Assembly (NCBI GenBank): GCA_905178155.1 | Contig: CAJINV010000005.1 | Location: 8,120,515-8,184,514 of the forward strand | DNA: 64,000 nucleotides | DNA from: Amoebophrya sp. A120 | Lineage: Eukaryota; Protista; Dinoflagellata | Direction: 5' to 3' | Shown here: one piece after another, positions 1 through 59,000 of the stretch | Numbering within the stretch: position 1 is the stretch's first letter | Layout: each line of letters begins with the position of its first letter | Notes under the pieces: generated by a model | The model's database searches: none | What the model was told of the DNA's origin: nothing | What the model saw: only the letters and a program-made list of their open reading frames with translations | Position numbers and translations under genes: made by a program

Positions 1-46
1 AATCCCCGCAGAAAAGGTCCAGCTCATTGGAAGGAGCGGACGCCAT
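1..46 (-). CDS. possible 5' end of a gene running off the window (MASAPSNELDLFCGD...)
   Basis: AAAC-ATG at 46-44, open frame to the window edge, same strand as neighbours; too short to identify. Confidence 0.3.
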   Translation of the reverse strand, partial: MASAPSNELDLFCGD

Positions 47-4217: not shown

Positions 4218-4377
4218 TATGAACTGCAAAAGTATCGTACTCGTATAAATGCATTACAAATAATTTTAATTTTGTTAGCATGAGAAATAATAATAAAATT
4301 TGTAATGCGGATTTGACTTAGGGAAAAGATTTGTAATGCATGATTGCAATACGAATACGATACTTTTGCACAGGATA
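4218..4377. mobile_element. introner-like element, family E (no host ORF recovered)
   Basis: TIR tatgaactgcaaaagtatcgtactcgta / tacgaatacgatacttttgcacaggata; DR tattc. Confidence 0.88.
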
Positions 4378-4532
4378 TATTCTCGATTGGTACGATTCTC
4401 GATGCCGCGAAGATCTTCCGGTAGAAGTTGTTCTTGCTCCGATAGTGCAAGTAGAGAAATGCATCTTCTTCAAAGAACTCGTTTTATATCCTATCGCTAT
4501 CACACAAAAACTCCGTTCGACTCTTCGCTTTA

Positions 4533-17670: not shown

Positions 17671-17869
17671 GTAGAGGTGTTGGTGGTGTTGGTGGTGGTG
17701 GTGGCTGTGCCATATTAAAACTAAAACTAACACTTTTTCCGACCTAAACCAACGAAAGAACTCCGAGTTGTTCGTGTGACCTGGAGAGTTCTTCTTGCAG
17801 CGATGCCTCAAATTCGATTTGTCTTGCAGTTGATCTTGGTTTATCTTCACAATGAAAGGGACGATCATT

Positions 17870-28200: not shown

Positions 28201-31167
28201 GACCTCAAATCTGCATCACAAATTTTCAGACGAATGCGCTTTCGATATGGGGAGGGGGAATTTTTCCTCACAATAGTCAATCCTCTTGATTCCCAACCAC
28301 TTCAGCGCATCCGGCATCATGGCCTGGAATATAGAATGCAAAAGTATCGCACTCGTTGCGTTCTAATTGCAGATATGCATGACAAATCGCCTTCCTTAGC
28401 TAAAACAGCATTACAAATTTTATTTGTAATGCGAAGCAAATTTGTAATGCAATTTACACTAGTACGATACTTTTGCACAGGATATGGAAGCGGGCATCAC
28501 GAATCCCGGCGATCGCCTCGGTCTGGTGAAAGTACTTATCGGCGGAATGGTATCCTATGTAAAAACGTCCCCAAAATGCAAATCTGCATGGCAAAATCTG
28601 CATGGCAAAAATGTTTCTCATGCGGAGCCCCGATCAGAAGCATTTTCTAGCCCTGTTTTGGAACTTGTAATGCTCTAATCAGCATAATAAGCTAGGTCTG
28701 TGCTGCTGCTGGAGCTGCTAGCTCAACAAGATTACACTACGAGGCCAAGAAACCTGTCATGCGCAACAACCTACGCTGCTAGATTTGTCTAGCAAATTTC
28801 CCACCTTGACTACAGGGTGGAACCGTTTTTGCTCAGGATAAGTCCCCTCCAGTCTGGTTCTCTCGCGCGTTGTAGACGCGGAATTTGATGACCTCCCCGA
28901 GGGACCGTCCCTCCTTGCGGTAATAGATGACGATACCAACCCCACCGCGCTGGGCACACTGGATACACTGCTGCAGGGCGAAGATGAGGTAGGGACGGCA
29001 GGTGCAGATGTCGGAGCCAAACCTGTATTTTGGTACTTTTCAGAGATCGATAATTTCGCATGCTGCCTCCACGCATGAATAATGATGAGCGGAGGTCCTT
29101 GCAACATATCATAATGCTTTTTCTTGATGCTGTTGATTCAAATTTCTATTGCATCAACTACCCGCAACAAAAGCAAAACTTCTCATGCAGAAAACAAGTA
29201 AGAACATCTAGTATAAATACACGTCACTCCCGATGCACTCATCGTGCACTCGCACGCAGATTTCTGTCGTCGGATCCCGGACCTTCCTCACGTCCCCAAA
29301 TGTGTAAATCGTGCACCCACCGACACCGGGGAGAAAGGTCTTCTTCGTTTTGTCCTTGAGATCCGGGTTGTTGGAATACTTGTACAGTGCGTCCCGCAAA
29401 TCGTCCTCGTCCATGTCCAGCCGTTCGCCCAAGCGGGGGACATCACAGGAAAAAAGTGCTTCAGTTACGCATTTGTTGGAGTTTCTGCATCACAAAGTTG
29501 CTCGACATGGCAAAGAAAACCTGTGATGCGCAGGCTATAAGGGAAAACACGAATGAGAGGCTGGCAAGCATTTCCTGCATGACAGGGGTTGCCTGTCTTG
29601 CTTGTCTTCCATCAGAGTGTGTAACTGTATATACTTTTTTCTCAAGATATGGGAGGTTCCACGCGTAGTAGATGGCGCACTTCTGGGTGCGGATTTGTCC
29701 GTCGTCGCGGACAATTTTCCCGTCTTTCTGCAGTTCCGCGGTCAACTCCGGGATGTCGAGATTCGCCTTGCACGCCGCGATGGTCGGGGGGTGTGCGTAC
29801 ATGCCCATAGGGTCAAACATGAAAATGTTTTTCCACTCCTTCTGGGTATCGGGGTGGTCGACGAGATCCTTAAATTCCGGCAAGTAGTACTCGTCATCCG
29901 TGCGGCGCTTGTACCTTTGATTTTGTTGTTTTCAAAAGTGAAGAAAGGAAATCTCTCATCCTGACTCTGCATTTCTTGAAAGTAAACAGTCAATCTGTCA
30001 TGCGAAAAGACGAACGCCAGGTGCAGCTAGACCCTTATACCATTCCCTCAAGTCGACCCCTGCTTTTTTCTCGGCGATGCCCCAATAAGCTGCGTTGTCC
30101 CAGCCATACACACCCGAGTAGTTCCCATTTTCCAAGTCCGCATGCACCTTGGTCCAGTCGTACTGCGACTCGAACGGGGGCCAGAGCAGGGAACTTTGCG
30201 TTACCGCATCCGCCGCGGCGTTTAACTGCTGTTCCATCGGAGTGCTATTCCCCGCGCTGGTGCTCATCACGCTGGTGTTCAGCGGTGAATTCTCGTCGTG
30301 GTTCAGCGTGTTGTCATATGAAATGCAAATGTGTCTGGGTCTGGAAGAATGCAACTTGTGATGCTGCATTTGGATTCCAAAAAAATCTGTATTGCATGAG
30401 TAGCAAAGGGAGTGCTCGTTTTGCTACGCTGAGAAGGCATTTGTCATGCGGAGTAGGCATCAAGAAGCCCTCAAAAAATCTGTATTGCTAGGGTATGCAT
30501 CAGAGACATCATGGCTCATGCAAAACGTGCATGAAAAGTCTCAGAATCTTCCCGACCCAGACACTTTTACAATTGATATGTCATTGTTGGCATTCGGCAC
30601 GTTTCCCGCGGACACCATATCGGACAGTATCCTGAGGAAAAACGTCCCCACTCGTCCACCTTATTCGTCATGCAAATGTACATCTGCAAAATGTTTCTCA
30701 TGCGCAGCTAGCTCCATGAAGAGCGATTTCTCACGCTATCTGGGAATTTGTCATGCTCGTATCAGGATAAGGAACTCGCTTTGTGATGCGACTGCGCCAC
30801 CTAACAACAACGGCACTCGAGACCTAGTAAAGTAGTTGTCAAGCGCAACAGCACAACCTTCTTGCTTTGCGTAGCAAAGCTGCCATCTTGCCGCTGGGGT
30901 GCGGACGTTTTTGCACAGGATAGACAGGGAAGGCAGGTCATTCGCGCTCGGCGGGGCGCCGACCCGCGGGTTCTGGCCCGGGAAGAACATCTTGGTCGAT
31001 TGTGCGCTGTCCTTTTCCCCGCCGACCGTGTAGCACTCCATCATCTTGGACCGCGGCGTGTTGGCCCCGCATTCGTACGAGGGAGCTTTTTTCCCGAATT
31101 TCAGCTGCCCGCCCGCGTTCGGGTTGGCGGTGACGAGCTGGTTGGCGACTTTGTCGAGGCGGTTCAT
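25251..31167 (-). CDS. URC1: URC1/Urg1 GTP cyclohydrolase II-like domain, N-terminal half of a URC1-URC4 fusion protein
   Basis: motifs PTIAACKANLDIPE, FLPGVGGCTIYTFGD, RVHDECIGSDVFGSDICTCRPYL, YYRKEGRSLGEV, DARFQAMMPDALKWLGIKRIDWLCSMSNEKYEAI, VEINAKVASGY; no stop before the URC4 part. Confidence 0.88.
25288..25550. mobile_element. introner-like element, family A variant
   Basis: degenerate A TIR; DR cgatt/cgact. Confidence 0.85.
26112..26210. repeat. degenerate 11-13 bp tandem repeat (cttTAAGGGgat)
   Basis: about 8 copies visible. Confidence 0.75.
27177..27590. repeat. degenerate tandem array of palindromic gatggccaag...tggccatc units
   Basis: about 8 units of 45-65 bp, each a short hairpin followed by gcttttgcccg. 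Confidence 0.75.
27955..28275. mobile_element. introner-like element, family C
   Basis: family C TIR; DR gtcaa. Confidence 0.9.
28330..28484. mobile_element. introner-like element, family E
   Basis: family E TIR; DR tggaa. Confidence 0.88.
28551..28840. mobile_element. introner-like element, family B
   Basis: family B TIR; DR decayed (aatgg/agtcc) but element+5 nt removal restores GGDSADKYF. Confidence 0.83.
29441..29649. mobile_element. introner-like element, family D
   Basis: degenerate D TIR; DR gggga/tggga. Confidence 0.83.
30317..30578. mobile_element. introner-like element, family A
   Basis: family A TIR; DR tgtca. Confidence 0.88.
30628..30922. mobile_element. introner-like element, family B
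   Basis: family B TIR; DR gacag. Confidence 0.88.
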
Positions 31168-32337
31168 TTTTTGGTATCTTTTGGTTTGGTTTGTTTGGAG
31201 TTGGACAAAGAAAACTTTATTCTCAAAATTATTTTGTGTACTTACACTGTACTGTTTTACTTCACTTTTATTCTACAAAACCCCGCCAGAAGAGATATTA
31301 TCCGGTTGTACAGAGAAAATCTAGCCAAAAAAAAACGGTGTTTGATATTCTACAACTGTGCTTGGTCAAAAAAGTCAAAAGTTTGATTTATTCGAACGAT
31401 AGCGAGGCTACTATCGTGAATGTTGTTGAGAGTCAGAGTGAAGTCTACTAGTACTACTTTCAGGAAAATCTTGTGACGGTGAAAATCTCCTACTTTCCGA
31501 TGGATTGAACTAGTACAACTACCGGATTGATTGATAATTATCAGCTGTTGTTTGGGTCATAGGGAGGAAACGAAATTTACTTTTGGGTGGGAGTACGTAT
31601 GAAAATCTGTAACGTGTCACTGAATTCACGTTTTATTTTCAACAACGAAGTGCCACGCGATGTGGATCTGGTTCCTGCGTGCAAAAAACGAAATGTCATG
31701 AAAACGCTGCTGCCTACGATGCTGCTTCTTTTTTGTCTGCGCTACTACTTCTTTCATCACGGAAAAGAACAAAAATGGCAATACGAGAACTACGTACTAC
31801 CAAAATCGGTCGGACTTCTTTTGCGTTCGGTTTATTTGGTCTAGCTGTGGCGATGTTGGATGACGCTTCGCTATCGCTGCTGCTAATAGGAACCGCTGCT
31901 GTGTCAGTCTTTTCAACGAGTTTTCTACTTTGCGAATTTCTTTTACAAACGAAGCGCACAGGGTACTGCTTTGATGAAAAAAGCAAAAGGAAACGAGGCA
32001 AGAAAAAACGAACAGATGGATCTGTACGTAGGCATCAATTTGGACCGCAGGCAAAAAATCAAATTCAGATCTTCAGCCTTTCACGTCGTGGGCCTTCATA
32101 GTGAAAATACGGACATCGTGATCGTTTTGACGAACAGCCTTTCACTGTCTGTATTCCAACACGAAAAAAATTCGCGCCGCTTTGACCTACTTCCACATCA
32201 TGCTTTGTAATTTACAAACAAGTCCGCGCGAGGACATCAATGGGGATGGTGCAGCTGACGTGCAAAAAAAGTTTGGCTGATGCACAAGTGAATTTATTCT
32301 TTTTTGTTTTTCATCATATCTGAATTCATCTGGTTCA

Positions 32338-35321
32338 TCACAACCCCACCAAGCGCCGCCTTCTTTCCTCGATCTCCTCGTTATTTTTTCGCAAGAACAA
32401 AGTATTGTCATCTTCTTTTTGATACAGTGGCACAGCGACCGCATGATAGTTCGCCACGCCACTGCTGCTGGAAAGCACCGCCTCACCGTCCTCATACGTG
32501 TAGGTTTTCGGCCAGATAGTTCCCGTCGGATGACTACCCGCGTGGTCCTGGGTTCCCGCGATTTCTCGCAGCACGTACTGGTCACTGGTAGACGTCGTAT
32601 TCCCTCCTGTCGTGACTACTTTATGCACCGAATCTCCGCTGTGATAACTGCGAAGCGACGCCGCGATCTTCCCGGGTGTAGGAAGCATACTTCTTATGCA
32701 TGGCAAGTATGTCATCTGGGTCTGGAAGATTGCCATGCATATTTTGCCTGACCCATGATCCCTGTAATGCATCACATAGCATCTTCACAGAATTTTAAAG
32801 AACATCCTGATGCCTATTCCGCATGAGAAACGCCCTCTCCGCGTCGCGCAAACTGGACGCCTCTTGCTGGTGCTCATGCAATACAGTTTTTTTTAGAATC
32901 GAAAGACAGCATCACAAGTTGCAACCTTCCGGACGTCCAGGGATATTTGCAATGCATACTTCTGCTCGTCCCGCTATAATTCCCTTGCAGCAGCGGAACC
33001 ACCCCGGAGTGCTGTTGCGGTGTTGTCGCCACGCTGCTATTTTTACCACTACTAGTACTCCCGGGCGCGCCCGCGGTGGTTGCAACCGCGGCCCTTTGCG
33101 CGTAGAATCGATTGGAGGATCCCGTGCTACTCCGGTCCGGGGTGACGAGTGGGTTATTTCTGGATTTCAAACCACGATCCGACGGTGCTGTATTTCCAGC
33201 TGCTATTTTATTCTCTTCTTCCGCCGCGGCGACAGTATCGAACATCGCGTCCATCTTCGCTTTCTCCTTTTCGTGTTTCAATTTCACTTGCTCCAACTCG
33301 TCTTCCATTCTCGCGAGTTTCAACGACTCCTATCAATTGCAAAAATGTCAGTCTGGGTCTGGAAGAATGCGCGACTTGTCATGCAGCTTTTCCATGACCC
33401 AGGAGGTCTGGAATGCAGGACCTAGCATGACAGAGTCTGTGCGATCTCTCTCATGCCTATCCTGCATGAGAAACTCCCTCCAGACTTGGTCAAAACTGGA
33501 CGACTTATGGTAATCATGCAACACAGATATTTGCATGCTTCAGATTTGGCATGACAAGTTGCATTCTTCCAGACCCAGACATTTTTACATTTGATAATTC
33601 CTTCCCCCGCTGTATCTCCCACAATACCCGATCCTTCTTCTCTTGGGCGAGCTTCTTTTCCAAAAACTGAATCTTCTCGACGAAAACGGCCTCCAGCATG
33701 GTTTCGTAGGTGGAGGGCTGCTGCGGTTGCTGGGCCGCCGTCGGGGAAGCGGGGAGTACCTGTTATTTGCAGTTTCGTTAGTAGGCTTTTATTTTTTCTT
33801 CGTTGGCATGCAAAAATCGTTCAAAGCTCATCTTCACATGAGGAACATGAGTCATCGGCGTACTGAACATGTTTCACATGACGCTCATCTTTCCTTCTAC
33901 ATGAGTAAGTTAACTTTCTTACGCTTACCTTCTCCGTTTTATGATTTCCCTCGTTCTTCGTCCCGGCCGTCGCCCCTGCTCCAGATGAGAAAGAGCTACT
34001 ACTCCCACCACCAGCGCTGCTAAATCCCTGTATCGGGAAATTCACGATGCAATCCCGCAGCTCCTGCAGGCTCTTCCCGTGTTGCAAACACCGGCTACGT
34101 ATCAAATGCAAAAGTGTCTGGGTCTGGAAGAGTGCAGACATTTGTGATGCAGTTTTTGCCTCGCCCAGATCGTCTGGCATGCAAGCCCTAGCATCACAGA
34201 TTCCGAGCAGGTATCCCAATGCCTAATCCGCATGACAAATGCCCACTTTCTGTGACAGGAAATAGGGCTTTTTGCTGACCGTGCATGAGAGATTTTGTCA
34301 TGATCTAGAATTCGCATCACAAATTCGAATCCACCCAGACCCAGACACATTTGCATTTGATACTGCGCCAAAAATCCACCCGGTTTTGCAGCGTTTGGTT
34401 TTCCGAGCGGAGGTTTTCGATGATTATTTCCCGGCTCGACTTGCTCTGCGCAGACAGATTATGATGTGCAGCAGCTGAATTGGCGTTTTCGACCAAACCG
34501 CCTCCGCCCGCGATGATCGCGTTCCCGCTGCCTTTATGGAATGCAAATATGTCTGGGTCTGAATGAGTCCGGATGTTTGGCATGCACACTTTGCATAGCC
34601 CATGGCGTTTGTGATGCACACCCTGGCATCACAGATTCTTTGCGGGCTTTCTGATGCCCATACATGAGAAATGCCCTCTCCGCATAGCAAAACCTTGGCC
34701 TCTTTTGCTGTTCATGCAATACAAATTCTGTGTAGAGTCCAAAGGCAGCATCACAAGCTGGCATCCTTCCAGACGCAGCCATATTTGCAATGCATAGCAT
34801 AACAGCTCCTCGATCGCCCGACCGAGGATTTCGTTATCAACTGCAAAAATGTCTGGGTCTGGAAACTTGTAGTGCTGCGTTGGGAGTAGATAATGCTCTG
34901 TAATGCACAGGCAAGCATGAGAAATATCTGCGCTTCTTTGTGTTGCGTTTTTCGCATGACAAACTGCGTTCTTGCATGACAGGAAACAGGGTCTCTTCTT
35001 GGACACGCATCACAAACTTTTTGGTCATGCCAGGCAAGCATGACAAGTCTCAAAAGCTTCCAGCCCCCGACACTTTTGCATTTGATATTCGTTCTCCTTG
35101 CGCAATTGCGCCACCTCCGTCGTCAGCTGGTCATTCGTGGTTCTGAGCAGTTGTTGGTCCTGTTGTAACCCGCGCGAGTGATGCGATTGGGGAGACCCTC
35201 CGGGCGTTTGCTTACGCTGTAAGTTGTGATGCTGTTTCAACTGGATTTGTCTACTGGCACCAGTCGCAACCGCCCCGCCGGAAGCGGGTCGCCGCCGGGT
35301 TTCGGTCATGTCTTTGCGCAA
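32338..35321 (-). CDS. hypothetical coiled-coil protein
   Basis: continuous frame across 5 elements and one GT-AG intron (about 33761-33928); heptad-like segments LTTEVAQLRKENE and MEDELEQVKLKHEKEKAK. Confidence 0.65.
32695..32958. mobile_element. introner-like element, family A
   Basis: family A TIR; DR cttct. Confidence 0.87.
33331..33596. mobile_element. introner-like element, family A
   Basis: family A TIR, close relative of 16735-16999; DR actcc/attcc. Confidence 0.88.
34100..34362. mobile_element. introner-like element, family A
   Basis: family A TIR; DR ctacg/ctgcg. Confidence 0.88.
34535..34796. mobile_element. introner-like element, family A
   Basis: family A TIR; DR gcctt/gcata. 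Confidence 0.85.
34835..35087. mobile_element. introner-like element, family A
   Basis: family A TIR; DR ttcgt. Confidence 0.88.
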
Positions 35322-36259
35322 TCGTGAAGACCGGTAAAGAAATACTCATGTGAAGCCTTTTCAAAAACTTCTAGGCTCAAAATTGTCTGCGAAATCGCGC
35401 ACCCCTGCACCGTGCGTGCGGCTCCACGGCAGTGGTCCGTCTGTCCGCTAGATGGTAGTCGTCGTCAATAGACAGTAAAAGAAGCCTCCTGCTTTGCAAG
35501 CATTTACATTTGCGCGCTCTCTCGGATCGACAGGCGGAAATAAGCAAAAGCCGAGACAATTACAATCGAACACATTACCCACCGCACCGAAAGCGAATCG
35601 TCCGGGGATTTTACAATTTTTGCTCGCCAGTATCTATCGCGTTGCTACAGTCTACTATTTTCAGTCGCAGTTAGTTCGAAAAGCGGAGGCGACTGCACGC
35701 AGCCGCGAGAAACGGCGGGCAAAACCTTGCTCCGGGCCGCAGAGGCTGGCATCACTCGTTCCGGCAATTTGTTACCGCGCACAGGAAAAGCCCGGCGGCA
35801 TTTTCCGCACGGGGCCATGTATCGACCCCGCCGCAAGTGGGGCCCCCGGGCGCTTCGAAGAGCGCGCCTCGGTGTTTGCTTGCACAAGCGCTTGCGGCCC
35901 GGGCAAGGAAACGGACTCTCGCCCTCGCAAAAGCAGCGCGCCTTCGCACGGCGGAACCGGTTTGGAGCGCGGCCCGACTCTCCTCCACTAGCAACCCGAG
36001 GCGGCAGTATCTGCGCCATAGAAGCGCGGGCCCGCAGGCGCCCGCCCAAGCAGGCGCGAGGGCCTACCCGCCCCCCGCAGCGGAGCCGCGGCCGACCGGC
36101 GGCGGCGGACTGCTGCGCCCGCGGTCCGCGCCACGAGGGGGCTGCAGCCTGTGCCTCCCGCCGATGGGAAGGCGGTGTAGAACAATACAAGGAGCCCAGC
36201 GCACTGACATAACTGCGCGGGGTCCGAGGCCTGCCCATCCAGGCCCATGTGTTCAGTTG

Positions 36260-37230
36260 TTGCCAATTTTTAAAAATTTTTGCACATTAGAAATCAGCCA
36301 GCACGAGCCTAATCGGCTTCCGCCGGTGAAAAAAGGTAAAGAAGCAGCGCAATTAGCGTCCTATGAAGGTCGATTAGACCAGATCTCTACACTCATAGGC
36401 CATGTTCCTCATTTTGATAAATTTTTTGAATTTTGCAAAAATTTAAAAAAAGCAGAAAAATGTAGACACTGGGCTTTTCGGAAGCAAATAATGCAGCAAA
36501 TCAATATATTCAACTTCTTGAGTCTGACACTTTTGCTACATTGAGGAAGTTAATCACTTCCGTGCAATTTTGTGGAATTTTTAAAATTTTAGTCGGGTCA
36601 GAAAACCGTCAACATTACAAAAACAAGCGCTCTAATTTGTAAAGTTTACTTCAAAAATATAAAATGAACTACCATCCGTCAGACTTTGAGTGATATTATA
36701 AACGTTTCTCACATCTCAGCCAATTTTTCAAAATTTTGATTTTTTTTATTCTAGGAAGTTCCTGCAAAACAGACTGAATGGATAATATATAAGTTTGGAA
36801 ATCCAAAGTACATAAATCCCTATGCGCAGTCTCTCACTCTTGCAGACTATTCACATAAGTCGTAGAGGTTGGCTGGAAGTGTGCAACTTTTTCAATTTTT
36901 TCGATTTTTTGAAAAATCAAGAAAAAATACAAACAAGGAACTAACTGCCCTTCTTCGGTTAGCCTATTCCATCAGATCACGCACGCGGCCTATTTATATT
37001 ATCTCTCTATGAGTAAGATTGTTAAGTTGTGTCATTTTTAAAATTTTGCCGATTTTGGCACTTTTCAAAAAGTGCAAAAATATATGTAATTCTGAAGCAG
37101 CTTCCAAATGAAAAATAATCGTAACACCAATTGAGCGCCCTGATGGCCATTCTCAAGATTTGTGGCTGCGTTTCTGTTGCGTTTTTACATTGCGCAAATT
37201 TTCTTAAATTTTTTTAATTTTGGAAATTGA
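36260..37230. other. AT-rich core with a T-tract motif every ~155 bp, between GC-rich arms, at a divergent strand switch
   Basis: (g)caatttt..aatttt..atttt blocks start near 36262, 36409, 36562, 36719, 36881, 37031, 37192. Confidence 0.6.
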
Positions 37231-38281
37231 TCAAGAAACCACCATGGTGGTCCAGGTCAGGTCTGGGCGATGAGAAGACGGCACAGATATACACTGACGG
37301 CGGCCGCTGCCAGTACTTTTCACCGAATTACGGAACCCGCTCTCCATTCCTGCACTTCCGTTAATTTTCCGGATCTCGCGGAATTGTATGCCCCCCCTCG
37401 CCGCCCGCCGGCCGGCGGATCGGATCGGCCCGCCTTACCGCGCTTACAAGAGGATGCAAAACCGCGCGCGGGGTGCCTGGTGGTAGTATCTCCGAGCCGG
37501 GCGCCCGAGCCTAGTGCCGCTATAGGCTGCCGCATCGCTCCGCCGAACACCTTCCCCCGCCCGCCGCCACCGTGGCCCCGTCGATATCGCGGAAGCGGGC
37601 CCCCATATTCCCAGCCGCCCAATAGGTGGCGCGGGGCCGGGTCGCCCCGCAACCGCCCGCGCCGCGGCACGGGCCCGGGAATGGGGGTAAGGCGTTTAGC
37701 CTTGGCCATCTTTTCTCTTCCGGCAAACTGGGGCGCTACCGCATAGACGCGAGAACTGGCGCACCGGCAAGGGCGCCACGCCGGCCCCCGCGGTTTTCGG
37801 TCTTCTTTGCCTGTAGATCCCGCGCGCGCCGCACACTCGGCCCGGGCGCCCGCGTGATGCCAGCGGGCGATCTCGGGCACGAACGAAGCCGCACGCCGAT
37901 TTTTTCGGTCCCGGTATTTAAGCTCTCCGCGCTCCTTTGCGCCCGGGCTTTTTCATGGTTTTTGGCGTCGCGGCAGCTTTCCGTGTCGCCGTTCGCGTTT
38001 CTTTGGTCGATCCACTCTTTTGACCTCGTCGCAGACTGATCCTCTTTGCTTTTTTCCGCACAGATTGTTTTTGGATCAATAAATTTTTTCGGGATGATGA
38101 AGTGCGGAGCGTAATTTCCGCTGGTAAAACACCGCGTTTTTTTTTCTTTACAAAAGTGACCCCCTGCCATTGCTAATGCAAGGACTTAGCCGGGATGTTG
38201 ATCATCTTTTTGAACCGCTACCGCAAGTAGCAGCACTTCTTCAGAACGCAGCAGATCTTCGAGAAAACAGCACGTAACAAA

Positions 38282-46300: not shown

Positions 46301-46482
46301 GGAGTCGAGATGCTAACGGCTTCCCCGTAGCAGCAGTTTTTTCTACGAAGTCGGTTGTTTCTGTTCGCGGATGATTTGTGGATTGGATCTTGTTCAAAAA
46401 GACGAGTTGTCTTACTTCTGTAGTCATGCTGAAGTGATGCACTTGAGCGAAAGCGCTGCACTTGATGTGCGAAGGACTCAAG

Positions 46483-46633
46483 CAGCGAACGACTTAACCG
46501 GGTGCACGACTTAAGGGGGTGCACGACTTAAGGGAGCGAACTACTTAAGGTTGCGAACGACTTAAGGGAGCGAACGACTTAAGGGCGCCACGCACCCAAA
46601 GAGCGAAGCACTTAAGCGAAGCACTACTTAGCG
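46483..46633. repeat. ~17 bp tandem repeat (gcgaacgacttaaggga)
   Basis: about 8 degenerate copies upstream of L2HGDH. Confidence 0.8.
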
Positions 46634-46735
46634 TTCCAAATCGCAACTGATTTCGCGCGTTTTATATTTATTGCCGCCAGGTAAGTAGATGTAGAAGTAG
46701 AACCATTTCCAGTGGTAGAGCACGCTTGTTCGTAC

Positions 46736-49448
46736 ATGACAGCCACGCGCGTGGTCATTCTCGGCGGCGGTGTTATCGGTTTTGCTTCGGCACGGCAAAT
46801 CGCACGGAGATTCGCCTTGCGCAGCAAAACCAAGTTGGACTTGTTCCTGCTCGAGAAAAACCCGTCTTTCGGCCAGGATATCGAACGCAAATATGTCTGG
46901 GTCTGCATGAGTGCAACTTGTGATGCCGCCTTTGGATTCTACACAAACTCTGCATTGCATGACCAGGAAGATGCCTCCCAGTTTTTGCTACGCTGGGAGG
47001 GCGCATTTCTCATGCGGTAGACGTATCATAGCGCCCTCACAAAATCTGTGATGCTGGGGTGTGCATCACAGACATCATGGGCCACGCAAAATGTGCATGA
47101 CAAACGTTGCATGTTTCCAGAGCCAGACACAGTTGCAATGGATACAGGAAACGACCTCCCGGAATTCCGGGGTGTTGCACGCGGGGATCTATTACCAACA
47201 AGATTTACGCATGTGTCAGAGTTGAAATCGACAAAGTTGAATATAATTTGTCATGCATAAAATGGATGCCAGTTTCCAAGTGGCGCATGACAAATTTCGC
47301 TGGTCCCTACATCCAGTTTGTCATGCTGTTAAGCAAAGAGGAGTGATTTTCTCATGCTACTTCAGCAGCTCGGACTGTAACCCCAAACAGGCTTACAATC
47401 GGCCTCACTTGCCTGCTCTGCAACACACGTACCTCGGGCCATGCATTTTATGCATTACAAATTATTTCAACTTTGACGATTTCAAACCTGACGCTTCCAT
47501 AAGATTCCTTCAAACACAAACTCTGCGTTGCTGGGCATAGCCAACTTTTGAAGTTCTGCGACCAGTACCAAGTCGACTACGATCTCTGCGTATCAAATGC
47601 AAAAATGTCTGGGTCTGGAAGAGTGCAAGATTTGTCATGCAGATTTCTCGCGATCCATGATGCCTGTAATGCATGGCCAAGCATCACAGACTTTTAAAGG
47701 GCTTACCGATGCACCTTCCGCATGAGAAATGCCCTGTCCATGTAGGACAAACCGGACCCGTCTTGCTGGTCGTGCAATACAAATTTTTTTAGAGTCCAAA
47801 AACAGCATGACAAGTTGCATTCATCCAGACCCAGACATTTTTACAATTCATACTGCGGAAAATTGATCGTGCAAGACCGATGTGGTTCATCACCAGAAGA
47901 AAACAAAACCGCGAAAGAAGAATTGTTGAAGTTGTATCACCAAGGGAAAGAATTGAATAACGTCCCGAAACTAGAATTGATCACAGACGATTCCGCAAGA
48001 TTGCAGCGCATGACGAACCAATTATTGAACCCGGAGATCAAAAATGCGATCTACAGCCCGGCGACCGGAATATTGGATGTGCACGGGTATTTGCTAGCCT
48101 TGCAAGCGGCATTGGAGGAAGAGGAAAGTGATTTTGTGAACGCGAGTGTCGTGTACAATTGCGGACTGGAGCAGCTGGAGGTGAAAAGTGAAAATAAAGC
48201 TGGCAATAGCAATACAAGCACTAAAATGCAGATCGAAACCACCCAAGGTGTCATCGAGGACGTGGACGTTTTTGTCAACTGCAGCGGGCTATGCATTGCA
48301 AATAAGTCTGGCTCTGGACACTTGTGTCCCTGTTTGGCGAATCATGTGGACGCCTTCATTGACAGCCAAGCTTGACAAGTTTTGGAGTTGCTAGAGTGTT
48401 GCCTATCTGCATGACAAACTGCGTTTCTGCATGACAGACAAGTGCGCCTTTTGTGTGGCGCGCATGACAAACTTGAGAGCCATGCTAGCTGTGCATGACA
48501 AACCCTGCATTCTTCCAGACCCAGACACTTTTGCAATCGATACAGCTTGTTTTCGGTGGAAATCGCGAAACACTGCTTGAGAGGAGTTCCTTCTCCGGTA
48601 GAAGAACTACTCCCGGACGCGGTGTACGCGAAGGGCAATATGACAGTGCACAACTCCCCTTCCCCCTCATGTGTCCTGCAAAATCCCAAATCCACCGGAC
48701 CCTTTTCTCTTTGGCACTTTTTGCATGACAGGTTCCGGAAGCCGAAACAGCACTAGAATCGGTTTCCAATTTGTCATGCAAAAGCTGCATTCATGCCAGC
48801 ACTTGTGTTGCTGCTTATGCCCTTCAAATGAGGGGGAGCGAGGAGGAGCTGTGCAGTTTTATAGGCAACTACTGGAAGTTGGAAAATAGCGCAAGCAGCA
48901 GCACTACTTCTACCAGTAGTACGGCAAAAGCAAAGAAGCCTGGTGACGTAAACCACTTGATCTACCCGTTGCCAGAAGTGGGCGGTCTCGGGACGCACCT
49001 GACGTTGGATTTGGACAAAAACGTCAAGTTCGGCCCGAACGTCGAGTGGATAGAAATTGAAGAGATAGAGACCGACGCCGGTGGTAAGAGTTCCTCCAGT
49101 CATCTATCAAGGAAATTGTCCAACCTCGAGAAGCAGTTCGAAACGCACTACAAACAAGTCCAGCCCGCGTCGGATATCGTGTACGAAAACATCCGGCGAT
49201 ACTACCCGGATTTACCCGACCATTCGCTGACGCCGGACTACGTGGGGATACGACCGAAGATAAAGTTGAAGAGCGATCCTGCCAGTGGCGGTGAGACAAG
49301 CAAGATACACAACGATTTTCACTTTCTGACGGATGGGACCAAAAATTCACAGATACACTGTCTTGGGATAGAATCCCCGGGTTTGACAAGTTCGTTAGCG
49401 ATCGGAGCGCATGTCGCGGATCTGGTTGTGGGGAAAGCTTTTTCCTGA
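46736..49448 (+). CDS. L2HGDH: L-2-hydroxyglutarate dehydrogenase (FAD-dependent oxidoreductase)
   Basis: VVILGGGVIG FAD motif, ETTSRNSGVLHAGIYY, CGKLIV, SPATGILD, KGNYW, LIYPLP..GLGTHLTLD, YVGIRPK, GIESPGLTSSLAIG; 5 elements removed. Confidence 0.92.
46879..47144. mobile_element. introner-like element, family A
   Basis: family A TIR; DR cagga. Confidence 0.87.
47206..47501. mobile_element. introner-like element, family G
   Basis: family G TIR, reverse orientation of 42077-42382; DR agatt. Confidence 0.88.
47591..47852. mobile_element. introner-like element, family A
   Basis: family A TIR; DR ctgcg. Confidence 0.9.
48290..48542. mobile_element. introner-like element, family A
   Basis: family A TIR; DR decayed cgggc/cagct. 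Confidence 0.84.
48639..48863. mobile_element. introner-like element, family F
   Basis: family F TIR; DR ggcaa. Confidence 0.88.
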
Positions 49449-50015
49449 TTTGAAGAATTGCGTCCGTCGTGCGGCAGAAAGACGGAAAATTCACATTGCA
49501 ACGGGCAAAGGGAGCTACCAAAGCTCTGTATCTGCTGTTCGCTTCTGTATGCAGCTGTAGCTTCTTGAGGTCTGAAAAAATGCGAGTTTTTATAACAACG
49601 AGAGGATCTACTGTTTGATCTCTTTTTCGTTCTTGTGTGATCTCGTTCTTCCAGTTGTCTTTCGAGGCTGTCACGAAAGGAGTGGTTCAAGATCTTTGTC
49701 TGGAAAATCATGCAGATTCGGATCGTCATCGTGCTTGTGCATTTGGATTTTTACCATTGTTTGAAGATCTCCTTGTTCACAAGTAGATTCGGTCTTTCAG
49801 ATTGTTTTTTGGTTTTCTCATTTTTGTCAGAGCTGCACGTCTGCATTTGCTCTGCATTCCGTGATCCTCCTCTCACGACCGTCTCGGAAGCTGTGGCTTT
49901 TCGGATCTTTTTTCAGTTGAAATAAATCGCAAGCTAACCAGAAGGTCGTGCGACGTCATCATGGCCGGCTTACGCCAGAACTGATTCGTAGTAGAAAAAG
50001 ACAAAAATTTTGACA

Positions 50016-53000
50016 ATGCGACCGACCAGCCAGAGTCTTGTCTCCGGGCGGACGATCGCGGGAGACGGCGGCGGGGGTCCGCTACTTAATGCGGCAGAAA
50101 GCAGACCAAGGTCACGGCTCAGGTCGAATCGCAGAAGCGTGATGTTTTGTTCTCGAACAGGTGTAGTGGCGCTCATGGCCACAACTGGGGCAATATCACT
50201 ACCAGCAGCAACATTCGTTGCCGCCCAGGAGATGTTCCCCAAGCAAAACGGGAATGGTGCTGCAGCGGCACCACAAATGCAAATGATGCACCAGCAGCAA
50301 CAGGTAGAACAACAGCAACAGCAGCAACAGATCCAGGCCCAGGCCCAGCAAGCATCCGCCCAAACCACAAACTTCGACCACGTGACGAATCTGCTTTTAA
50401 CCGCCCGGCAAAGATCCACGAGCCAAAATCTCTCCTGCGCGCCGAGGGAAAGTGATAATCCCGGCAGTAATGTTGATCCGGTTCTGAATGTTTTCATGAT
50501 GTGGCCGGGGTCGCCGGAGACATTTTTGACCGAGTCCTACGCGTATCAACTGTAAAAATGTCTGGGTCTGGAAGAATCCAGCTTGTCATGCAGATTTTGG
50601 ATTCTAAAAAAATCTGTATTGCATGAGCAGCATAGAGAGTCCAAGTTTTGCTACACGGAAAGAGCATTTGTCATGCGGTATAGGCATCAGGAAGCCCTCA
50701 CAAAATCTGTGATGCTAGGGCATGCATCACAGACATCAGGAGTCATGCTTAATGTGCATGGCAAACCTGGCAATCTTCCAGACCCAGACATTTTTACATT
50801 TGATAGCGCGACGTTAGAATCCGTTCTCTTCCACCACCCAAATGCAAACATCTACGTGCTGAATTTACCAGATGGTTTTTTCGCTGAGAGGTACAACACG
50901 GAAGCGGGGTACTGTGTCTTCTCCGTCCCGTATGACGCTGCACAGCTTTTCCTCTCCCTTGTTTGTCATGCAAAATACCGAGTCCACCTCATGACTTTAA
51001 GCATTGCGCGCATGACAAGGTTTGGACGCCGGAAGAGGACTGCATTGCCTGTGTTGCTGCTCATGCTATACAAATGAGGGGGAGGTGGAGTTGTGCACTC
51101 TCATATGCCGCTAGATTGGAACGTCATTCGGGATATCATTTTCGTGGCCCTCGGGAAGTTGCACAGCGGGTTCAGCCTGGACATGATTTATCCTGAGTAA
51201 AAACGTCCCCACCCCATAGTCAAGATGGGAAACAGCTAGACAAATCCGTCAGCTTTGGTTGCTTCGCATGACAAGCTTGCCCTCGTAGTGTAATCCTGTT
51301 GAGGTAGTTATTAAGCAGCGTCACAGATCTAGAGTACCATGCTGATTCTAGCATCACAAGTTCCACAACACGAATAGAAACTGCTTCTCATGGGTCTCCG
51401 CATGAGAAACACCTTGAGCATGCAGATTCGCATGACAACTCTGGGGTGGGGACGTTTTCACTCAGCATATGATCTCCGAATTTCTCTACACCATGCAGAA
51501 CACCCCGGACCCGCCACTGACCATGGGGGTAGTTTGGAACGCTTTGATCTTTTCTATCGCAATAAAAAACTGGTTCACTGTAAACTTGTGATGCCTAGAA
51601 CGGAGCGCAAATGTGTTTGTCTTGCTACACATGCAACACAAACACATTGGATTTCTAGCTGTGTTTTCCCTTAGGAAGCACGCATGGACGCCAAGTCTTC
51701 TTTGTCATGTGTAGCAAACTTGTGATGCAGATCTTGCAAAATCACCACAGTGATACAGTTTTTTCGTGGGATATTTTCTCTTCAGCATTTGTTCGGTGGA
51801 TTGTTCATCCCGTTGGATGGATTACTTGTCGGTGCCATTGACCAATTTCTGGATTCGAAGATAGAGAAAACACTGGTTTTCACGGAACGAATCCTTCCGG
51901 AGAAGCTCCCCTGGGGCTTAAAGTTCGAAGAAGTGAAGCAACCACGATCCCTATCCTGAGAAAAAACGCCTCCACGACCCCATAGTCAAGTTGCTCGGAT
52001 GAATCTAGCAACACAGATCTCCAAGTTTTGGGAGCTGTGCATGACAAAATTCCCTTGGCAGTGTAGTGCTGGTTGGCAAGGTGGGAAGCCGCATGAGGAA
52101 GCTATTTTCTCATCCTGTTTACAGCATGACAAATTCCAAAACACAACTGGAAATCATGCCTCTCATGAAGCTGCGCATTACAAATCGATTCCTGTCATTG
52201 CGCATATGCAGGACAACTCTGGGGAGGTGGGGACGTTTTTTCTCAGGATAATCCCCTACCGACTTGGCGGACCTGGAAACGGGGATTTGCGGCGACGTGC
52301 AGATGTGCTTACGGCACATCCCATTGGGACACACAGTTGGGAGAGAGTACGTGCATTTCATCGTGGACCAAGTCCGAAATTGGAAAAACGGGTCGCCGGA
52401 TTTGGAAAAATTCGGCACGGAGAAGATGAGGTCGTGGATGACAACCCCAGTACAAGAACTTGAGAACCCTAATTCATTGTCAACAGACGGAACGCAGCAA
52501 ACGGCGAAGCTCACTCTCCTCCCCCATTGGGTGATTCAGGAACCTACTTTCGCCGACGGGTATAACGCACATATCTTAGTCGGCCCGGAAAAGCAAACCG
52601 AACTGTATATGACCTGCTCAAACGTTACAATCTCAAAGGTTACAATACAAGCTGGGATTTGTCTTGCATGATGAGCATGACAGACTCGTCGCAGAGCATT
52701 CCACTTTCTGCAGTACAAGTTTCGCCAGATTATAGTGCGGTTTGGAGCTGCTCGGAAACTTGTCATGCGTAATCCTGTGGAAAGAGGCTAGATCTTATCA
52801 TGCACTCTTGCATCACAGATTTCCATATTCTATTGTAACGCTTGCGATTGTAAGACCTGCGCGGGTTATACTGTACACACCGAGATTCCAACGCTCGAGT
52901 TCCGACTGGACGTTGGTGTCTACCGCGAAGTTGTGGCTGCCGTTACGGTATGGGCAGATATCCAGCCGAAACGCGCTTCGCTGGTCGGTCATGGACAGCG

Positions 53001-56000
53001 CATTGCTCTTGCAGTCGTTGCACTTGTCCCCCTACCCGTACCGGACCGCGTTTTACAATCACGACTGGGAGAAACATTATTTCAAAGATAACAGTTACCA
53101 CTTACTCATCGGCATTTCGGACCAGTACCGGAATTTCGCGCAATCCGGTCTCAACGAGACCATCCAGGCGGGGATTTCCGAGGGCGCCTACCCCGGAATA
53201 GTCGGCGGCTTCCGCACGTTCGGGCGGATCCGGGTGGTTGGCAGAAGCTGGAAAGGCGTTTGGAAAGAGTCGAGGGCATTGATTGCGGGGGATAGTCAAC
53301 AACAAACAACTCAACCGGCGAACAACAACCAGGTTGCTGTTACCCCACCAAAACCTGAAGACGCATTTCCCTACTCCGGCACGATCGCGGAGACGCAGAC
53401 TCCGAACCAGCTGCGGCTGCGGATTATGCATTACAGAAGTGTCGTGCCACTGCAAATCGCATGAGAAATTTTCTTAAGAGAAAGAGTTGAGCTTTGATGT
53501 CATGCTGAGTTGGGTAAGAAAACAGCAGGTCTGTCATGCATTCTTTCGATTAGTACCACGAGCGCGATGCTTTTGCATGGGATACGGATCACGGTGAACA
53601 AAAACGTGGAGTTTTTTTGCCGCAACGCCGCGATTTCTTCACAGTATGAGTGGAAGGATGAAAAATTGTTTGAGAAATGCGAAAACGCGCTGACATCTTC
53701 TTCTGCGGGAGCAGCTGGTATTTCTTACTTCTCAAGTAGTCGTGCAGCGCCGAAGAACGTTTTCAATTTTTGCGGCACCAGCCAGGAAATTAATTCCATC
53801 GTTATCATTCGTAAAAACGTCCCCACCCCAGAGTCAAGACGGGGATTTTGCAACACAAACCTGAAAGTTTTGGGAGCCACGCATGACAAGTTGCAGGCTG
53901 TAGTGTAATGCAGTTTAGCAAGGGAAGCCGCATAACAAATCCATCTCCTTATTCTGTTGACAGCATTACAACTTCCAAAACGCGATGGGAAATGCCTCTC
54001 ATGGGGATGCGCATTACAAATGCTCTTGTGCTTGCAGATCTGCATGACAACTCTGGGATGGGGATGTTTTTGCACAGGATAATCGTCCGGATGTTGAGCT
54101 ACCGGGGAAATTTCGACCACCAGAAGGAGTTACTCGAGGAGGAGGAAGTTGCGCGGGCGGCTGCAACCGCTTTACAGCACGGAATGATCGATCAGCCAGA
54201 GGACGCGCAGAACAACAAAATCAGGGAGAAAATCAACCAGCACTACGGCACGGCTAGTTTCACGCTATTTCAGAACTGTAAAGTCGAGGACGAGAGCTAC
54301 GAAAACCTCACCCTCGACCAGTACAAGGGGATTCAGATTGGGGAGAAGTTGTTCAAACAGCAGCAAATGTCAACCACAACGACCACCACGACCACAGTCG
54401 AAACGACGGAAACCGAGGAGATGACGCCATTACCGGGGATCCTCACCGGGCCGGTGAACCTGCCCCAACCGGGCGGCGCTTTGTCCGCGAAGGAGATCGA
54501 GGAGAAGTTTGGGCATTTGGAACGGAAAAACGTGTTGGATTTCCGAACGGTGCAGATTCTACTCGACAATCCAGAAGAAGTGATCACGATCGCGGCGCAC
54601 AGCGCGAGCCGGTGTTGGATGCTGGACCGGATGGAAGTGAGTTTGAAAACCAGTTACCCGAACATGAAAATCATCGGGACGTGCGAATGTGCGGAGGAAG
54701 GTAGAGTTGGATGTTTTTTTTTTGTGTTGCAGGATGTCATGTCTAGAAAAAAAAAATCCAATAGAAATTCTCCAACGCCCCAATAGAAATTCTCCGTATA
54801 GAGAATCTCCCGCGTCGAATCTATCTGCTCCCGCTTTGTCTTCGGTTGCGTCAGTCTGCTCTTCGCCTTCGCCTGGCGCAAAGAAAAGCTGTTGACCTTC
54901 CTCTGGCACAAAAGCCCACTCCCGCTTGACTTTTTCAAAGTGCTCTTTTTGTTCCGTGCCCATGGACGGGGAAAAAAGTTCCTGTGCATGTTTCGGCCTC
55001 TGGGGGTTCAGCTTTTTCTTCTTTTTTTGCCCGCCGTCAGTTGCGGGGAAAGAAAGAATAACTCCGCACCGACCTGGCGGCCGGCGTAGGGGAAATAGAG
55101 AATATTGCGCACACTCTGCGCGCGCGGGCTTTTTTTTGAGCGGCCAGACGCTCTTGCTCGCCGATGCGCGGCATCTGGCGGCGTGGCGGAAATGAAAAAA
55201 ATTTCTGCGCGCTGCGTCGCGGGGGCTTTTTCTTGTGAGCAGCCGGGCGCCCCTTTTCGCCGGCCCGCGCACCACATCAATCTTGCGGCGTGCTGGTATC
55301 GAAAAATAAATATGCGCGCCGTCGCCAGCGCCCCGCGCTTTGTAGCGATGCGGGATCGAATTCAAAAAATTTTCGTGCGCTGCGTGCGCGCGAGCTTGTT
55401 TCTCTGAGCGGCCGCGCGCTCCCGTTGCATGCCCGCGCGCCGCGCTTGGTGGCCATGCGGAATCGAATTCAAAAAATTTTTGCGCGCTGCGCGCGCGCGA
55501 TTTTGTTTCTCTGAGCGGCCGCGCATTCCCGTTGCCCGCGCGTCGCGCTTGGTGGCCATGCGGAATCGAATTCAAAAAATTTTCGCGCGCTGCGCGCGCG
55601 CGAGGTTTTTTCTCTGAGCGGCCGCGCACCCCCGTGGCCCCCCCGTGCGCCGCGCTTTGCTGCGATGCGTGTGGAAGTGAATTCAAAAAATTTTCGCGCA
55701 CTGCGCGCGCGCGAGTTTTTTTCTTTGAGCGGCCGGGCACTTCCACCGCCCGCGCGTCGCGTTTGGTGGTGGTGTGGGATCGAATTCCAAAAAATTTCGT
55801 GCGCTGCGCGCGCGCAAGTCCTTTTCTTTGAGCGGCCGCGCGCTTCCGTTGCCCGTGCGCCGCGCTTGGTTGCCATGCGGAATCGAATTCCAAAAATTTC
55901 CGCGCGCTGCGCGCGCGCGAGTTTTTTTCTTTGAGCGGCCGCGCACCCCCGTCGCCCTCCCCGGGCGCCGCGCTTGGTGGCGCGTGATGCGCGTGGAAGT

Positions 56001-59000
56001 GAATCGAGAAAATTTTCGCGCGCTGCGCGCGCGCGAGTTTTTTCCTCTGGGCGGCCGGGCACTCCCATCGCCCGCGCGCCGCGTGTTGTGGCGGTGTGGG
56101 ATCGACTTCCAAAAAATTTCGCGCGCTGTGCGCGCGCGAATTTGTTTCGCAGAGCGGCCGCGCACCCCGGCCGCCCGAGCGCCGCGCGTCCCTGGTGGCG
56201 ATGGGTATGGGGCCGAATTCAAAAAAATTTCGCGCGCTGCGCGCGCGCGAGTTTTTCTCTCTGAGCGGCCGCGCACCCCCGTCGCCCGCGCGGCGCGCCT
56301 GGTGGCGATGGATGCGGAATCGAATGCAAAAAGTTTTTGCGCGTCTTTTTCCTTGGCCGGTCGCGTATTTTCGTCGCCCGCGCTTCGCGCTTGGTGGCGA
56401 TGTGGGGTCGAGCTACAAACTTTTTGCGCGCTGCGCGCGCGCTTTTTCTTCTACTGGGCGGCCGCGCACTCCTTTGCGCGCGCCACACATGGTGGCGCGT
56501 TTGCTGGGATTGAAAAAAAGCTCTCGCGCATTTTGGTCGCGCGCGCGGAGTGCGGAGGGGATGGGTTAAATTCTCTCGCGCGGGCTGCAGCCATGCGTCG
56601 CGGTTGGATCGATGGAATGGGATAAATTCTTCTGCGTTGCGCGCCTGGTGTCCGTTTTTTCGAGCAGGCGGCGCGCGCTCCTTTTCGTGCGCCGCGACCC
56701 CCCGGCGTTGTTTGCGGGAGTGGAAAAAAAAACTCCTCGCGCTCCGCCCGCCTGGGCTTTTTCTTTCGTGCTGGCTCCCTTTTTCTGCGCGCCGCACCTA
56801 GGTGGCGGCGGACCGACGGTGTGGGGGCCAAAAAAAAATTCGCCCGCTGCGCGCGCAGGCCACCTCTCGGGCAGGCGCGTGGGTGTTCTCGCATGCCGTG
56901 TCTGGCGCCGTGGGTGGGAGGCCGCTAAGTGGGTCCATCAAAGATTTTCGAGGAGCGCCGCGCGCTCCTACGTTATCACGCGCCACACCTAGCTGGTGTG
57001 GGCCTGCGTCGCGAAGATAATCGCGCGGGCTGCCGCTAGACGGCCGGGCTGCGCCCAGGCTTTGCAGGCTAGCGAAGCCTTGGCTGAGAGGCTGGCAGAC
57101 TAGCACCCAGGCTTTGCAGGCTAGCAAAGCCTGGGTGCCAGGCTGGCAGGCTAGCAAAGCCTGGGCGCCAGGCTGGCAGGCTAGCAAAGCTGGGGCGCCA
57201 GGCTGGCAGGCTAGCAAAGCTTGGGTGCCAGGCTGGCAGGCTAGCAAAGCCTGGGTGCCAGCAGGCTGGCAGGCTAGCAAAGCCGGGGTTGCCAGCAGGC
57301 TGGCAGGCTAGCAAAGCCTGGGTTGCCAGCAGGCTGGCAGGCTAGCAAAGCCTGGGTTGCCAGGCTGGTAGCCAGGCTTCCTGGGTTGCTGGCTGGCAAC
57401 CTAGCATCTCAGATAGAGAAAAATCTCTATCCCAGATAGAGACTCTCTATCCCAGATGGAGAATCTCTATTTGGGATGGAGAGTCTCTATTTCGGCTTCG
57501 CCACTGGTGGAGGAGCTGCTGAAATATAGTAAAAAACATGTGGGAAAACAGTAAGAAACAGAAAAAGAAGAAAAAAGAAAGAAAAAGAAAGAAAGAAGAA
57601 GAAAAAAATGATACTCTTTATCCAGAATTTCTATTTTCCTCAGAGAGTCTCTATTTCAAATAGAGATTCTCTTAGATTTTCTATTTCGAGAGCCTGATGT
57701 GTCGTGGAAAAAAAAATGGTTTTTACCATGCTGATCAACTACATGACAAATTTCATCTTTTATGTCAAAAATTGCCGAAAAACTTCTACACCAGACCCCG
57801 TCTGCGACCCGACGCCGATCAAGAAGTCGGACATTCTCACCATCTATCCCGTCCCCTACGATTTTGGGTTATCCCAGGGCAAATATGCATTGCAAAAGTG
57901 TCTGGGTCTGGAAGAGTCATGCTGTTTTTGCATGACACAGAAGGTCTGCCATGGAAGCTGTAGCATCACAGGTTTCGAGAGGCTTCCGCAATGCCGAATC
58001 CGCATGACAAGTCCCTCACTTCGGTGAAAGAAAGTGTGCAGCTTTTGCTACCTATGCATGAGAGATTTTTCTGTGTTCTGAAATGCGCATCGCAAGTTTT
58101 TATTCTTCCAGACCCAGACATATTTGCAATCCATAGCGAAACGCGGCTGACAAATTTGGTCACGACGAAGTACTTGCTAATCCTGGACGACGATTTCGTG
58201 CGCACCCATCACACCTGCATTGAGTGTATGCTGGCGAAGATGTACAGCTATTGGCACACCAGTTTCCTCCCCCTGGACCTGGTCGGCTTCCCCGTTTTGG
58301 AAGACGAGAGGAACTTCGGCGCGTACCGGGGGAAGTTCCGGTTGCAGAACACGGCGCTGTTTTTAGAACCCTTTTACCACCAAAACGCCCCGGATGGGTG
58401 TATCCGGGTGGACTTCTGTCCCATGGTGTACTTGGCCCGGAAAGCCAGAATGGCGACGTTTGAGTGGAAGAAGGAATTGAAGGTGGGAGAGCACGAGTAT
58501 TTTTTATCAACTGCAAATATGTCTGGGTCTGGAAGGATGCAAACTTGTGATGCTGTCTTTGGATTCTTAAAAAATTTGTATTGCATGACCAGCAAGAGGA
58601 GTCCAGTTTGTACTACGTGGGGAAGGCATTTCTCATGCGTCACAGGCATCAGGAAATCCTCTAAAAATCTGTGATGCTGGACCATGCATTACAGGCATCG
58701 GGGGTCATGCAAAATATGCATTGCAAACCTCTCACTCTTCGAGACCCAGACATTTTTGCACTCGATATTTCTTCTACACGAACAAGTTAAAGGGGATCCA
58801 AACCGGGGTTTGCTTCGACAGTAGCTTCGCCCACGCTCGGCACAAGCCCAGCACCGCGGTGGCGAATTACCAGGGCAGGAGAGACAGGTTTTTGGACCTT
58901 ATTATCCTGTGTAAAAACGTCCTCGCCCCAGAGTTGTCATGCAAATCTGCATGCCAAAAAAGCCTCTCATGCGGAGCCCCATGAGAAGCGTTTTCCAGTT

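Follow-up and report, generated by a model that had tools for sequence, protein, structure and literature searches.

The window analysed here, a stretch of 64,000 nucleotides from the dinoflagellate Amoebophrya sp. A120 (assembly GCA_905178155.1, contig CAJINV010000005.1, positions 8,120,515 to 8,184,514), carries genes interrupted by short elements that begin with TAT and end with ATA. Curation yielded 70 of them spanning 1728..62193, which measure 143-338 nt with one of 981 nt and fall into several sequence families; all-against-all BLAST confirmed that the families are repeated. Long open reading frames (ORFs) open once each element is taken out together with 5 nt. For 67 of the curated elements the flanking direct repeat (DR) had a mean identity of 0.91 at a length of 5 bp versus 0.23-0.33 at 2-4 and 6-8 bp, and was perfect in 45; three further elements with a perfect DR brought the set to 48 perfect and 22 mismatched repeats. 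The inverted repeats start with TAT followed by seven variable nucleotides and at least three A, and both arms of all families share TAT-N5-G-N-AAA with variable positions 4-8.

These elements are the published introner elements of Amoebophrya A120. The text of Farhat et al. (2021, PMC7789003) describes inverted repeats made of TAT, then seven variable bases, then three or more A, with DRs of 3-5 nt (5 bp in Fig. S19), a length of about 240 nt, many families and RNA-supported removal; it further states that more than 60% of the A120 introns are non-canonical and leaves the borders and the mechanism of removal open. The exon at 48864-49448 is 100% identical to a protein attributed to A120, on which ground a euglenid or diplonemid origin of the DNA was rejected. 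The elements are probably non-autonomous DNA transposons whose transposition made the 5-bp duplication; no transposase was seen in the window and no empty site among the loci of a second assembly (see below), which had no orthologous flanks. The 981-nt element (59413-60393) has the ends of a family of 150-160 nt, a perfect 5-bp DR and about 830 nt extra inside with 13-bp repeats. Its removal as a single intron is compatible with the length arithmetic given below, and the ORF tested from it had no Pfam match. Another element begins at 63836 and is cut off by the end of the window at 64000.

The transcript evidence consists of four contig sets whose RNA origin is a guess; they come from two samples of one study. 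All four were aligned to 28400-42100, where 15 of 23 joints were listed. Eleven of these, i.e. every element joint listed, skip one element plus exactly one repeat length of 5 nt (L+5), and three are GT-AG introns on the minus strand, which confirmed the direction of the genes. The joint 28484/34835 (side 24) connects the ends of two elements and was excluded as stemming from repeats. For 44001-64000 one of the four runs was aligned and four junctions were taken from contig piece ends and record coordinates. Here the arithmetic of L+5 removal was exact for ten elements, and one more fits together with a GT-AG intron of 3,094 nt; 456 nt skipped between 58503 and 62188, spread over six further elements, remain unassigned to introns. 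DNA contigs continue from exons into elements. Among the 15 DNA-run-inclusive rows listed of 690, all of them element-to-element, there was no L+5 joint, which is not a full test. Raw RNA runs of 2026 had no power on the cut, with 90 reads on an element in one run (X8), all partial, and none in the other (X9). As a minor point, two of the four contig sets hold one extra T at 31086.

A perfect DR hides the position of the cut, while a mismatched one reveals for each differing letter which copy was retained. Informative junctions were obtained for 11 of the 22 mismatched sites (Table 1); the sites at 40124, 41215, 41758, 50931 and 51189 were not among the joints listed, and six lie outside the aligned stretches. 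Repeat positions 1-3 always came from the transcript-upstream copy at the 11 junctions on both strands. Position 4 likewise was that of the upstream copy in four of four cases (28551, 33331, 48290, 58505). Position 5, on the other hand, was that of the downstream copy in four of four cases, again on both strands (29441, 38925, 39250, 48290). A cut after position 4 is the only one common to all 11 allowed sets. If the cut varied at random, the chance of one shared position would be 1.2e-4 (product of the allowed fractions), or up to 7e-4 allowing for the cut being chosen afterwards. Thus the intron has the form N-TAT...ATA-NNNN, and we are highly confident that it begins 1 nt before the 5' TAT and finishes 4 nt past the 3' ATA. 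The polarity of repeat-copy use follows the transcript. The site at 48290 fixes this 1+4 geometry by itself, because the contig piece ends at 48288 and not at 48289. Since 1+4 equals the 5-bp duplication, an insertion anywhere and in either orientation would be restored to the base.

Table 1. Informative introns, further elements and host genes (DR in transcript orientation, upstream/downstream copy)
Feature	Position	Strand	Element	DR	Joint or piece end	Runs	Informative repeat positions	Remarks
Intron	28547..28841	-	28551-28840	GGACT/CCATT	28545/28841, 1 letter ambiguous	4/4	1, 2, 4 upstream	GTP_CH_N-domain gene
Intron	29437..29650	-	29441-29649	TCCCA/TCCCC	29436/29651	4/4	5 downstream	3' end ATG for ATA; rules out 0/5
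Intron	33327..33597	-	33331-33596	GGAAT/GGAGT	33325/33597	4/4	4 upstream	
Intron	34096..34363	-	34100-34362	CGCAG/CGTAG	34094/34363	3/4	3 upstream	
Intron	34531..34797	-	34535-34796	TATGC/AAGGC	34529/34797	4/4	1, 3 upstream	
Intron	38924..39204	+	38925-39200	CCCCC/GCCCG	38920/39202	3/4	1 upstream, 5 downstream	rules out 0/5
Intron	39249..39396	+	39250-39392	ACTTG/CCCTA	39247/39396	3/4	1, 3 upstream, 5 downstream	ends TAC...ACA; rules out 0/5
Intron	48289..48546	+	48290-48542	CGGGC/CAGCT	piece end 48288, then 87 letters = 48547-48633	one run	4 upstream, 5 downstream	FAD oxidoreductase gene
Intron	50543..50809	+	50544-50805	ACGCG/GCGCG	piece end 50539		1 upstream	
Intron	57883..58139	+	57884-58135	GCAAA/GCGAA	piece start 58139		3 upstream	
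Intron	58504..58771	+	58505-58767	TTTTT/TTTCT	piece end 58503		4 upstream	
Perfect-DR elements	within 30312..35092	-	30317-30578, 30628-30922, 32695-32958, 34835-35087	perfect	joints show L+5 removal			cut position uninformative
GTP cyclohydrolase N-terminal domain gene (PF12471)	27878..31272	-						direction confirmed by two GT-AG introns
FAD-dependent oxidoreductase gene (PF01266, L-2-hydroxyglutarate oxidase-like)	46739..49448	+						five elements; element-free ORF matches A120 protein

A preliminary description of the window had used mismatched repeats as markers of the cut, a method we judge sound, and had arrived at an intron of the form TAT...ATA-NNNNN (0/5). The four elements on which it relied (28551 and 34535 on the minus strand, 48290 and 57884 on the plus strand) do carry mismatched 5-bp repeats, and its translations with the upstream and the downstream copy were reproduced: GGDSADKY versus GGH, EELLCS versus EEL followed by a stop, NCSGL versus NCSSL, and LSQGK versus LSQGE. 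That the upstream copy yields the right protein is true at these four sites, where the contig-supported protein agrees, but it is not a general rule: at 38925 the contigs encode CPA, while the upstream copy would give CPP. The 0/5 geometry itself fails, since the transcript contigs give 1/4. Complementary DNA with the downstream copy, which the description itself had set against its reading, occurs at repeat position 5 in all four informative junctions; at 29441, 39250 and 48290 the contigs hold the fifth base of the downstream copy and the changes are silent. The protein at the four cited sites is the same whether the cut lies 0, 1 or 2 nt inside the upstream repeat, so these sites could not fix the geometry. 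At 48290 CTG and TTG both encode leucine, so that the error of one base was hidden at the protein level. Taken together the earlier interpretation is partly supported but off by one base. Its fixed distance of the cut from the element ends was borne out, and the terminal letters of the intron are free. Of the proposed mirroring of the 5-nt stagger only the total 1+4=5 survives, and this total is required of every neutral insertion that comes with a 5-bp duplication. The direction of GC-to-AT mutation in the repeat copies gave no usable signal.

Whether the letters at the splice sites are read was addressed with a scan of metagenome contigs, which gave 154 loci (L001-L154) of one other assembly with 361 elements of the same families. 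Their density was similar to that of the window, their identity to window copies reached 95.8%, and the 5-bp DR was perfect in 252 of 361; the constant repeat length may in part reflect the detection, which required ungapped repeats. A codon model was applied that had assigned the correct orientation to 67 of 68 elements of the window under leave-one-gene-out testing, and 282 of the 361 elements were kept, 79 being dropped for a repeat match below 3/5, weak orientation or a short flank. In 352 oriented elements the intron positions +1 and -4 to -1 and the exon positions -4 to -1 held at most 0.011 bits of information (p>0.14), and GT-AG under the 1+4 rule occurred in nine. GT at +1,+2 was present in 21/68 elements of the window and 89/282 of the second assembly, with a nearly fixed T at +2 and a free +1; AG at -2,-1 was present in 1/68 and 25/282, respectively. 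Within a family both orientations with respect to the transcript occur (32/21, 14/11 and 10/7), hence the signal must sit in the symmetric ends. In a stop-codon analysis of the second assembly 14 of 42 repeat mismatches were synonymous, and among 31 elements there was one case where position 5 of the upstream copy would create a stop, which is consistent with 1+4 and has no power.

In the 1+4 register the intron starts with T at +2, A at +3 and T at +4. The four canonical introns examined in the window all start with GTA and two of them with GTAT. U at +2 and A at +3 are thus as in canonical donors, which favors a relaxed spliceosome over a hairpin nuclease, and on balance we prefer the view that a U2-type spliceosome of relaxed specificity reads the end motifs and counts. 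N-UAU would be read in the register of the canonical GUA donor with +1 free, the 3' site would lie a constant number of nucleotides past the AUA motif and need no AG, and the first A of AUA, at -7, would be the candidate branch nucleotide. Table S4 of Farhat et al. gives NT- for all nine predominant site pairs of A120 and TT- for all nine of A25, where the repeats start with TTA (PMC7789003), which agrees with U at +2 and A at +3 in either strain. The same source reports U2, U4, U5, U6 and nearly all spliceosomal proteins for A120. Fixed distances from branch to acceptor are described for Giardia, Trichomonas and Yarrowia (PMC2483917), and in tunicates mostly non-GT/AG introns are reported to be spliced by a modified spliceosome (PMC13326754). 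Single-base end variants point in a similar direction: none fell on +2 T, the first T of the 5' arm, versus nine at the mirror position, and -7 A varied in two cases versus 11 at its mirror, the third base of the 5' arm, which is the opposite of what pairing alone would predict. The constraint on -7 A is a lead.

Several points weigh against a relaxed spliceosome. It is extreme for a spliceosome to dispense with G+1 as well as AG, and the two motifs would be concealed in a closed stem. Farhat et al. did not find U1 in A120 (PMC7789003), and the agreement with their Table S4 may owe something to aligner preference. The 3' arms were not enriched in YTRAY-like branch contexts, arm positions 4-5 being roughly equal (C 187 vs 164). 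Conservation of the terminal inverted repeats (TIRs) is equally expected from binding by a transposase. Eight of the nine variants mirroring +2 keep a G-U wobble, and G-U pairing predicts the asymmetry at +2 too; that at -7 was first noticed in the window, and the independent set by itself gives 7 vs 2 (p=0.18). As to the junctions, four of the 11 rest on piece ends from one run and three were seen in one sample only; contigs drop minor isoforms, and it is not certain that runs and assembly are independent. The machinery is a proposal drawn from sequence data.

The failure to find U1 would also suit a non-spliceosomal endonuclease and ligase that recognises the base of the terminal hairpin, cuts with a 3-nt stagger and thereby produces the same 1+4 geometry, as suspected for the nonconventional introns of euglenids. 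We regard this as rather unlikely, though it is the strongest of the alternatives. It would account for free splice-site letters, irrelevant orientation and the G-U pair kept in eight of nine end variants, and the Euglena introns are described as using spacer lengths around a paired motif. The ends of two elements came together in predicted folds (z -2.0 and -1.9), but these folds are not specific, because any TIR folds back. Moreover, G-U pairs were not in excess over A-C mismatches in transcript orientation, neither at arm positions 1-16 (199 vs 210) nor at 17-26 (139 vs 115, p=0.15), and arm positions 4-8 were paired in only 1059 of 1715 cells. TAC or TAG in the 5' arm, which makes a mismatch, was commoner than GTA in the 3' arm, which keeps a wobble (11 vs 2), and the element at 39250 fits the 1+4 cut in spite of two terminal mismatches. 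Nothing in the arms points to selection for RNA pairing, and a distance counted from an end motif that is read would fit equally well; the earlier proposal of a hairpin as the ruler for the acceptor is accordingly unproven. A dedicated protein, e.g. a domesticated transposase or a new RNA-binding factor, might instead read TAT-N7-AAA at both ends and cut, or replace U1/U2AF. The motif common to both arms of all families with its varying positions 4-8 would suit such a protein, and Farhat et al. propose a protein replacing U1 (PMC7789003). Yet such a protein is hypothetical, and binding of a transposase at the DNA level explains the motif equally; we consider this explanation improbable.

The remaining alternatives concern the cut rather than the machinery. 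According to Farhat et al. the sites vary in position with respect to the hairpin and lie 1-5 nt away from the inverted repeats (PMC7789003), and minor forms may be hidden in contigs, so the 11 sites could be unrepresentative and most elements could follow 0/5 or a cut sliding within the repeat. This is very improbable: the four position-5 sites rule out 0/5, the four position-4 sites rule out cuts further left, and with 48 of 70 repeats perfect apparent variability is expected from alignment ambiguity. Less credible still is that the joins are jumps of reverse transcriptase across the hairpin between direct repeats, or excisions at the DNA level, instead of splicing. A hairpin with a short repeat is a known setting for such jumps, and the runs are only guessed to be RNA. 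Removal was nevertheless precise where the repeats match at only two of five positions (28551, 39250, 48290), the 48290 junction having no letter in common, and a jump should probably retain the downstream copy, while four of five letters are upstream. The same contigs are without GT-AG introns and without elements, which weighs against either artefact, as do the long ORFs that need the removal and the DNA contigs that run from exon into element. More broadly, we consider it possible, at a little short of even chances, that N-UAU...AUA-NNNN is a second splicing code of A120 that ignores both terminal dinucleotides. Introns in the tens of thousands would then be cut at counted distances of 1 and 4 nt from the symmetric end of a transposon; a U1-less spliceosome that branches at A-7 or a new enzyme would do the counting, and the match to the 5-bp duplication would make any insertion silent in both orientations.

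The elements of A120 were already known, and what is added here is the fixed 1+4 cut. The text of Farhat et al. finds no splicing signature for them (PMC7789003), while one fixed cut fits here. Later papers discuss the A120 elements, and their text gives no cut rule (PMC12130899, PMC11282704). No paper stating the 1+4 rule was found in the literature searched, which did not extend to figures 3 and S19-S23 of Farhat et al. The nonconventional introns of euglenids (5'-N3CDG...CHGN5-6 followed by R, PMC12501133; PMC11282704) resemble the window elements in their transposon-like TIR and target-site duplication (TSD), a paired triplet at fixed spacers and sliding junctions, and their code was likewise found from introns that cannot slide (Nomura et al. 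2025, PMC12501133). They differ in motif and spacing, with CAG/CTG and spacers of 3 and 5-6 as opposed to TAT/ATA and spacers of 1 and 4, and the lineages are unrelated. Release as full-length circles rather than lariats is a further hallmark of the euglenid introns. Instead of CAG at +4..6 and CTG at -8..-6 the window elements have TAT at +2..4 and ATA at -7..-5, and their exon position +1 is flat, without the purine preference of the euglenid downstream exon. Introners of algae and dinoflagellates derived from miniature inverted-repeat transposable elements (Gozashti et al. 2022, PMC9860276; 2025, PMC12130899) likewise combine TIR and TSD with exact restoration and part of the TSD in the intron, but they are described as carrying or co-opting GT/GC and AG, while the window elements need neither. 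In Fritillaria borealis, too, most introns escape GT-AG and the spliceosome is kept, but preferred terminal dinucleotides are retained and divergent U2AF paralogs are reported (PMC13326754). IS3EU/GingerRoot transposons share TA..TA termini with the window elements, but their TSD is usually 6 bp (PMC10045372), while perfect 6-bp repeats were found in 0/67 and 0/361 elements here; compared as relatives, the IS3EU termini did not fit. Diplonemid introns did not fit either (PMC12621601).

A cut fixed at 1+4 allows the A120 introns to be re-annotated with exact borders, a gap left by Farhat et al., and explains how a coding sequence can take up elements at any point without cost. It also makes the mechanism of excision testable with respect to a branch at A -7, the letters +2 U and +3 A and the role of pairing, and it parallels, in an unrelated lineage, the Euglena spacer code of 2025. 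If true, splicing without G+1 and AG would stretch the presumed needs of the spliceosome.

The genes of the window form two long co-oriented blocks, 1-36000 on the minus and 38000-64000 on the plus strand, which diverge on either side of a GC-rich region near 35.5-38 kb. In the first block a DUF1688 gene adjoins the GTP cyclohydrolase N-terminal-domain gene (21263-31272 for both), a pairing that presumably recalls the uracil-regulated URG genes of fungi. The canonical introns at 29023-29220, 29915-30040 and 33760-33928 (minus strand) and 54701-57794 (plus strand) end in A-rich tracts without a pyrimidine run, and in that at 33760-33928 a branch-like motif, a near-perfect CTACTAAC, stops 18 nt short of the acceptor end. 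The 3,094-nt GT-AG intron at 54701-57794 holds a GC-rich tandem array of 103 bp (55319-56343) together with arrays of 30 and 52 bp and an ORF of 617 amino acids without a Pfam match; other DNA contigs also match this intron, suggesting related copies elsewhere.

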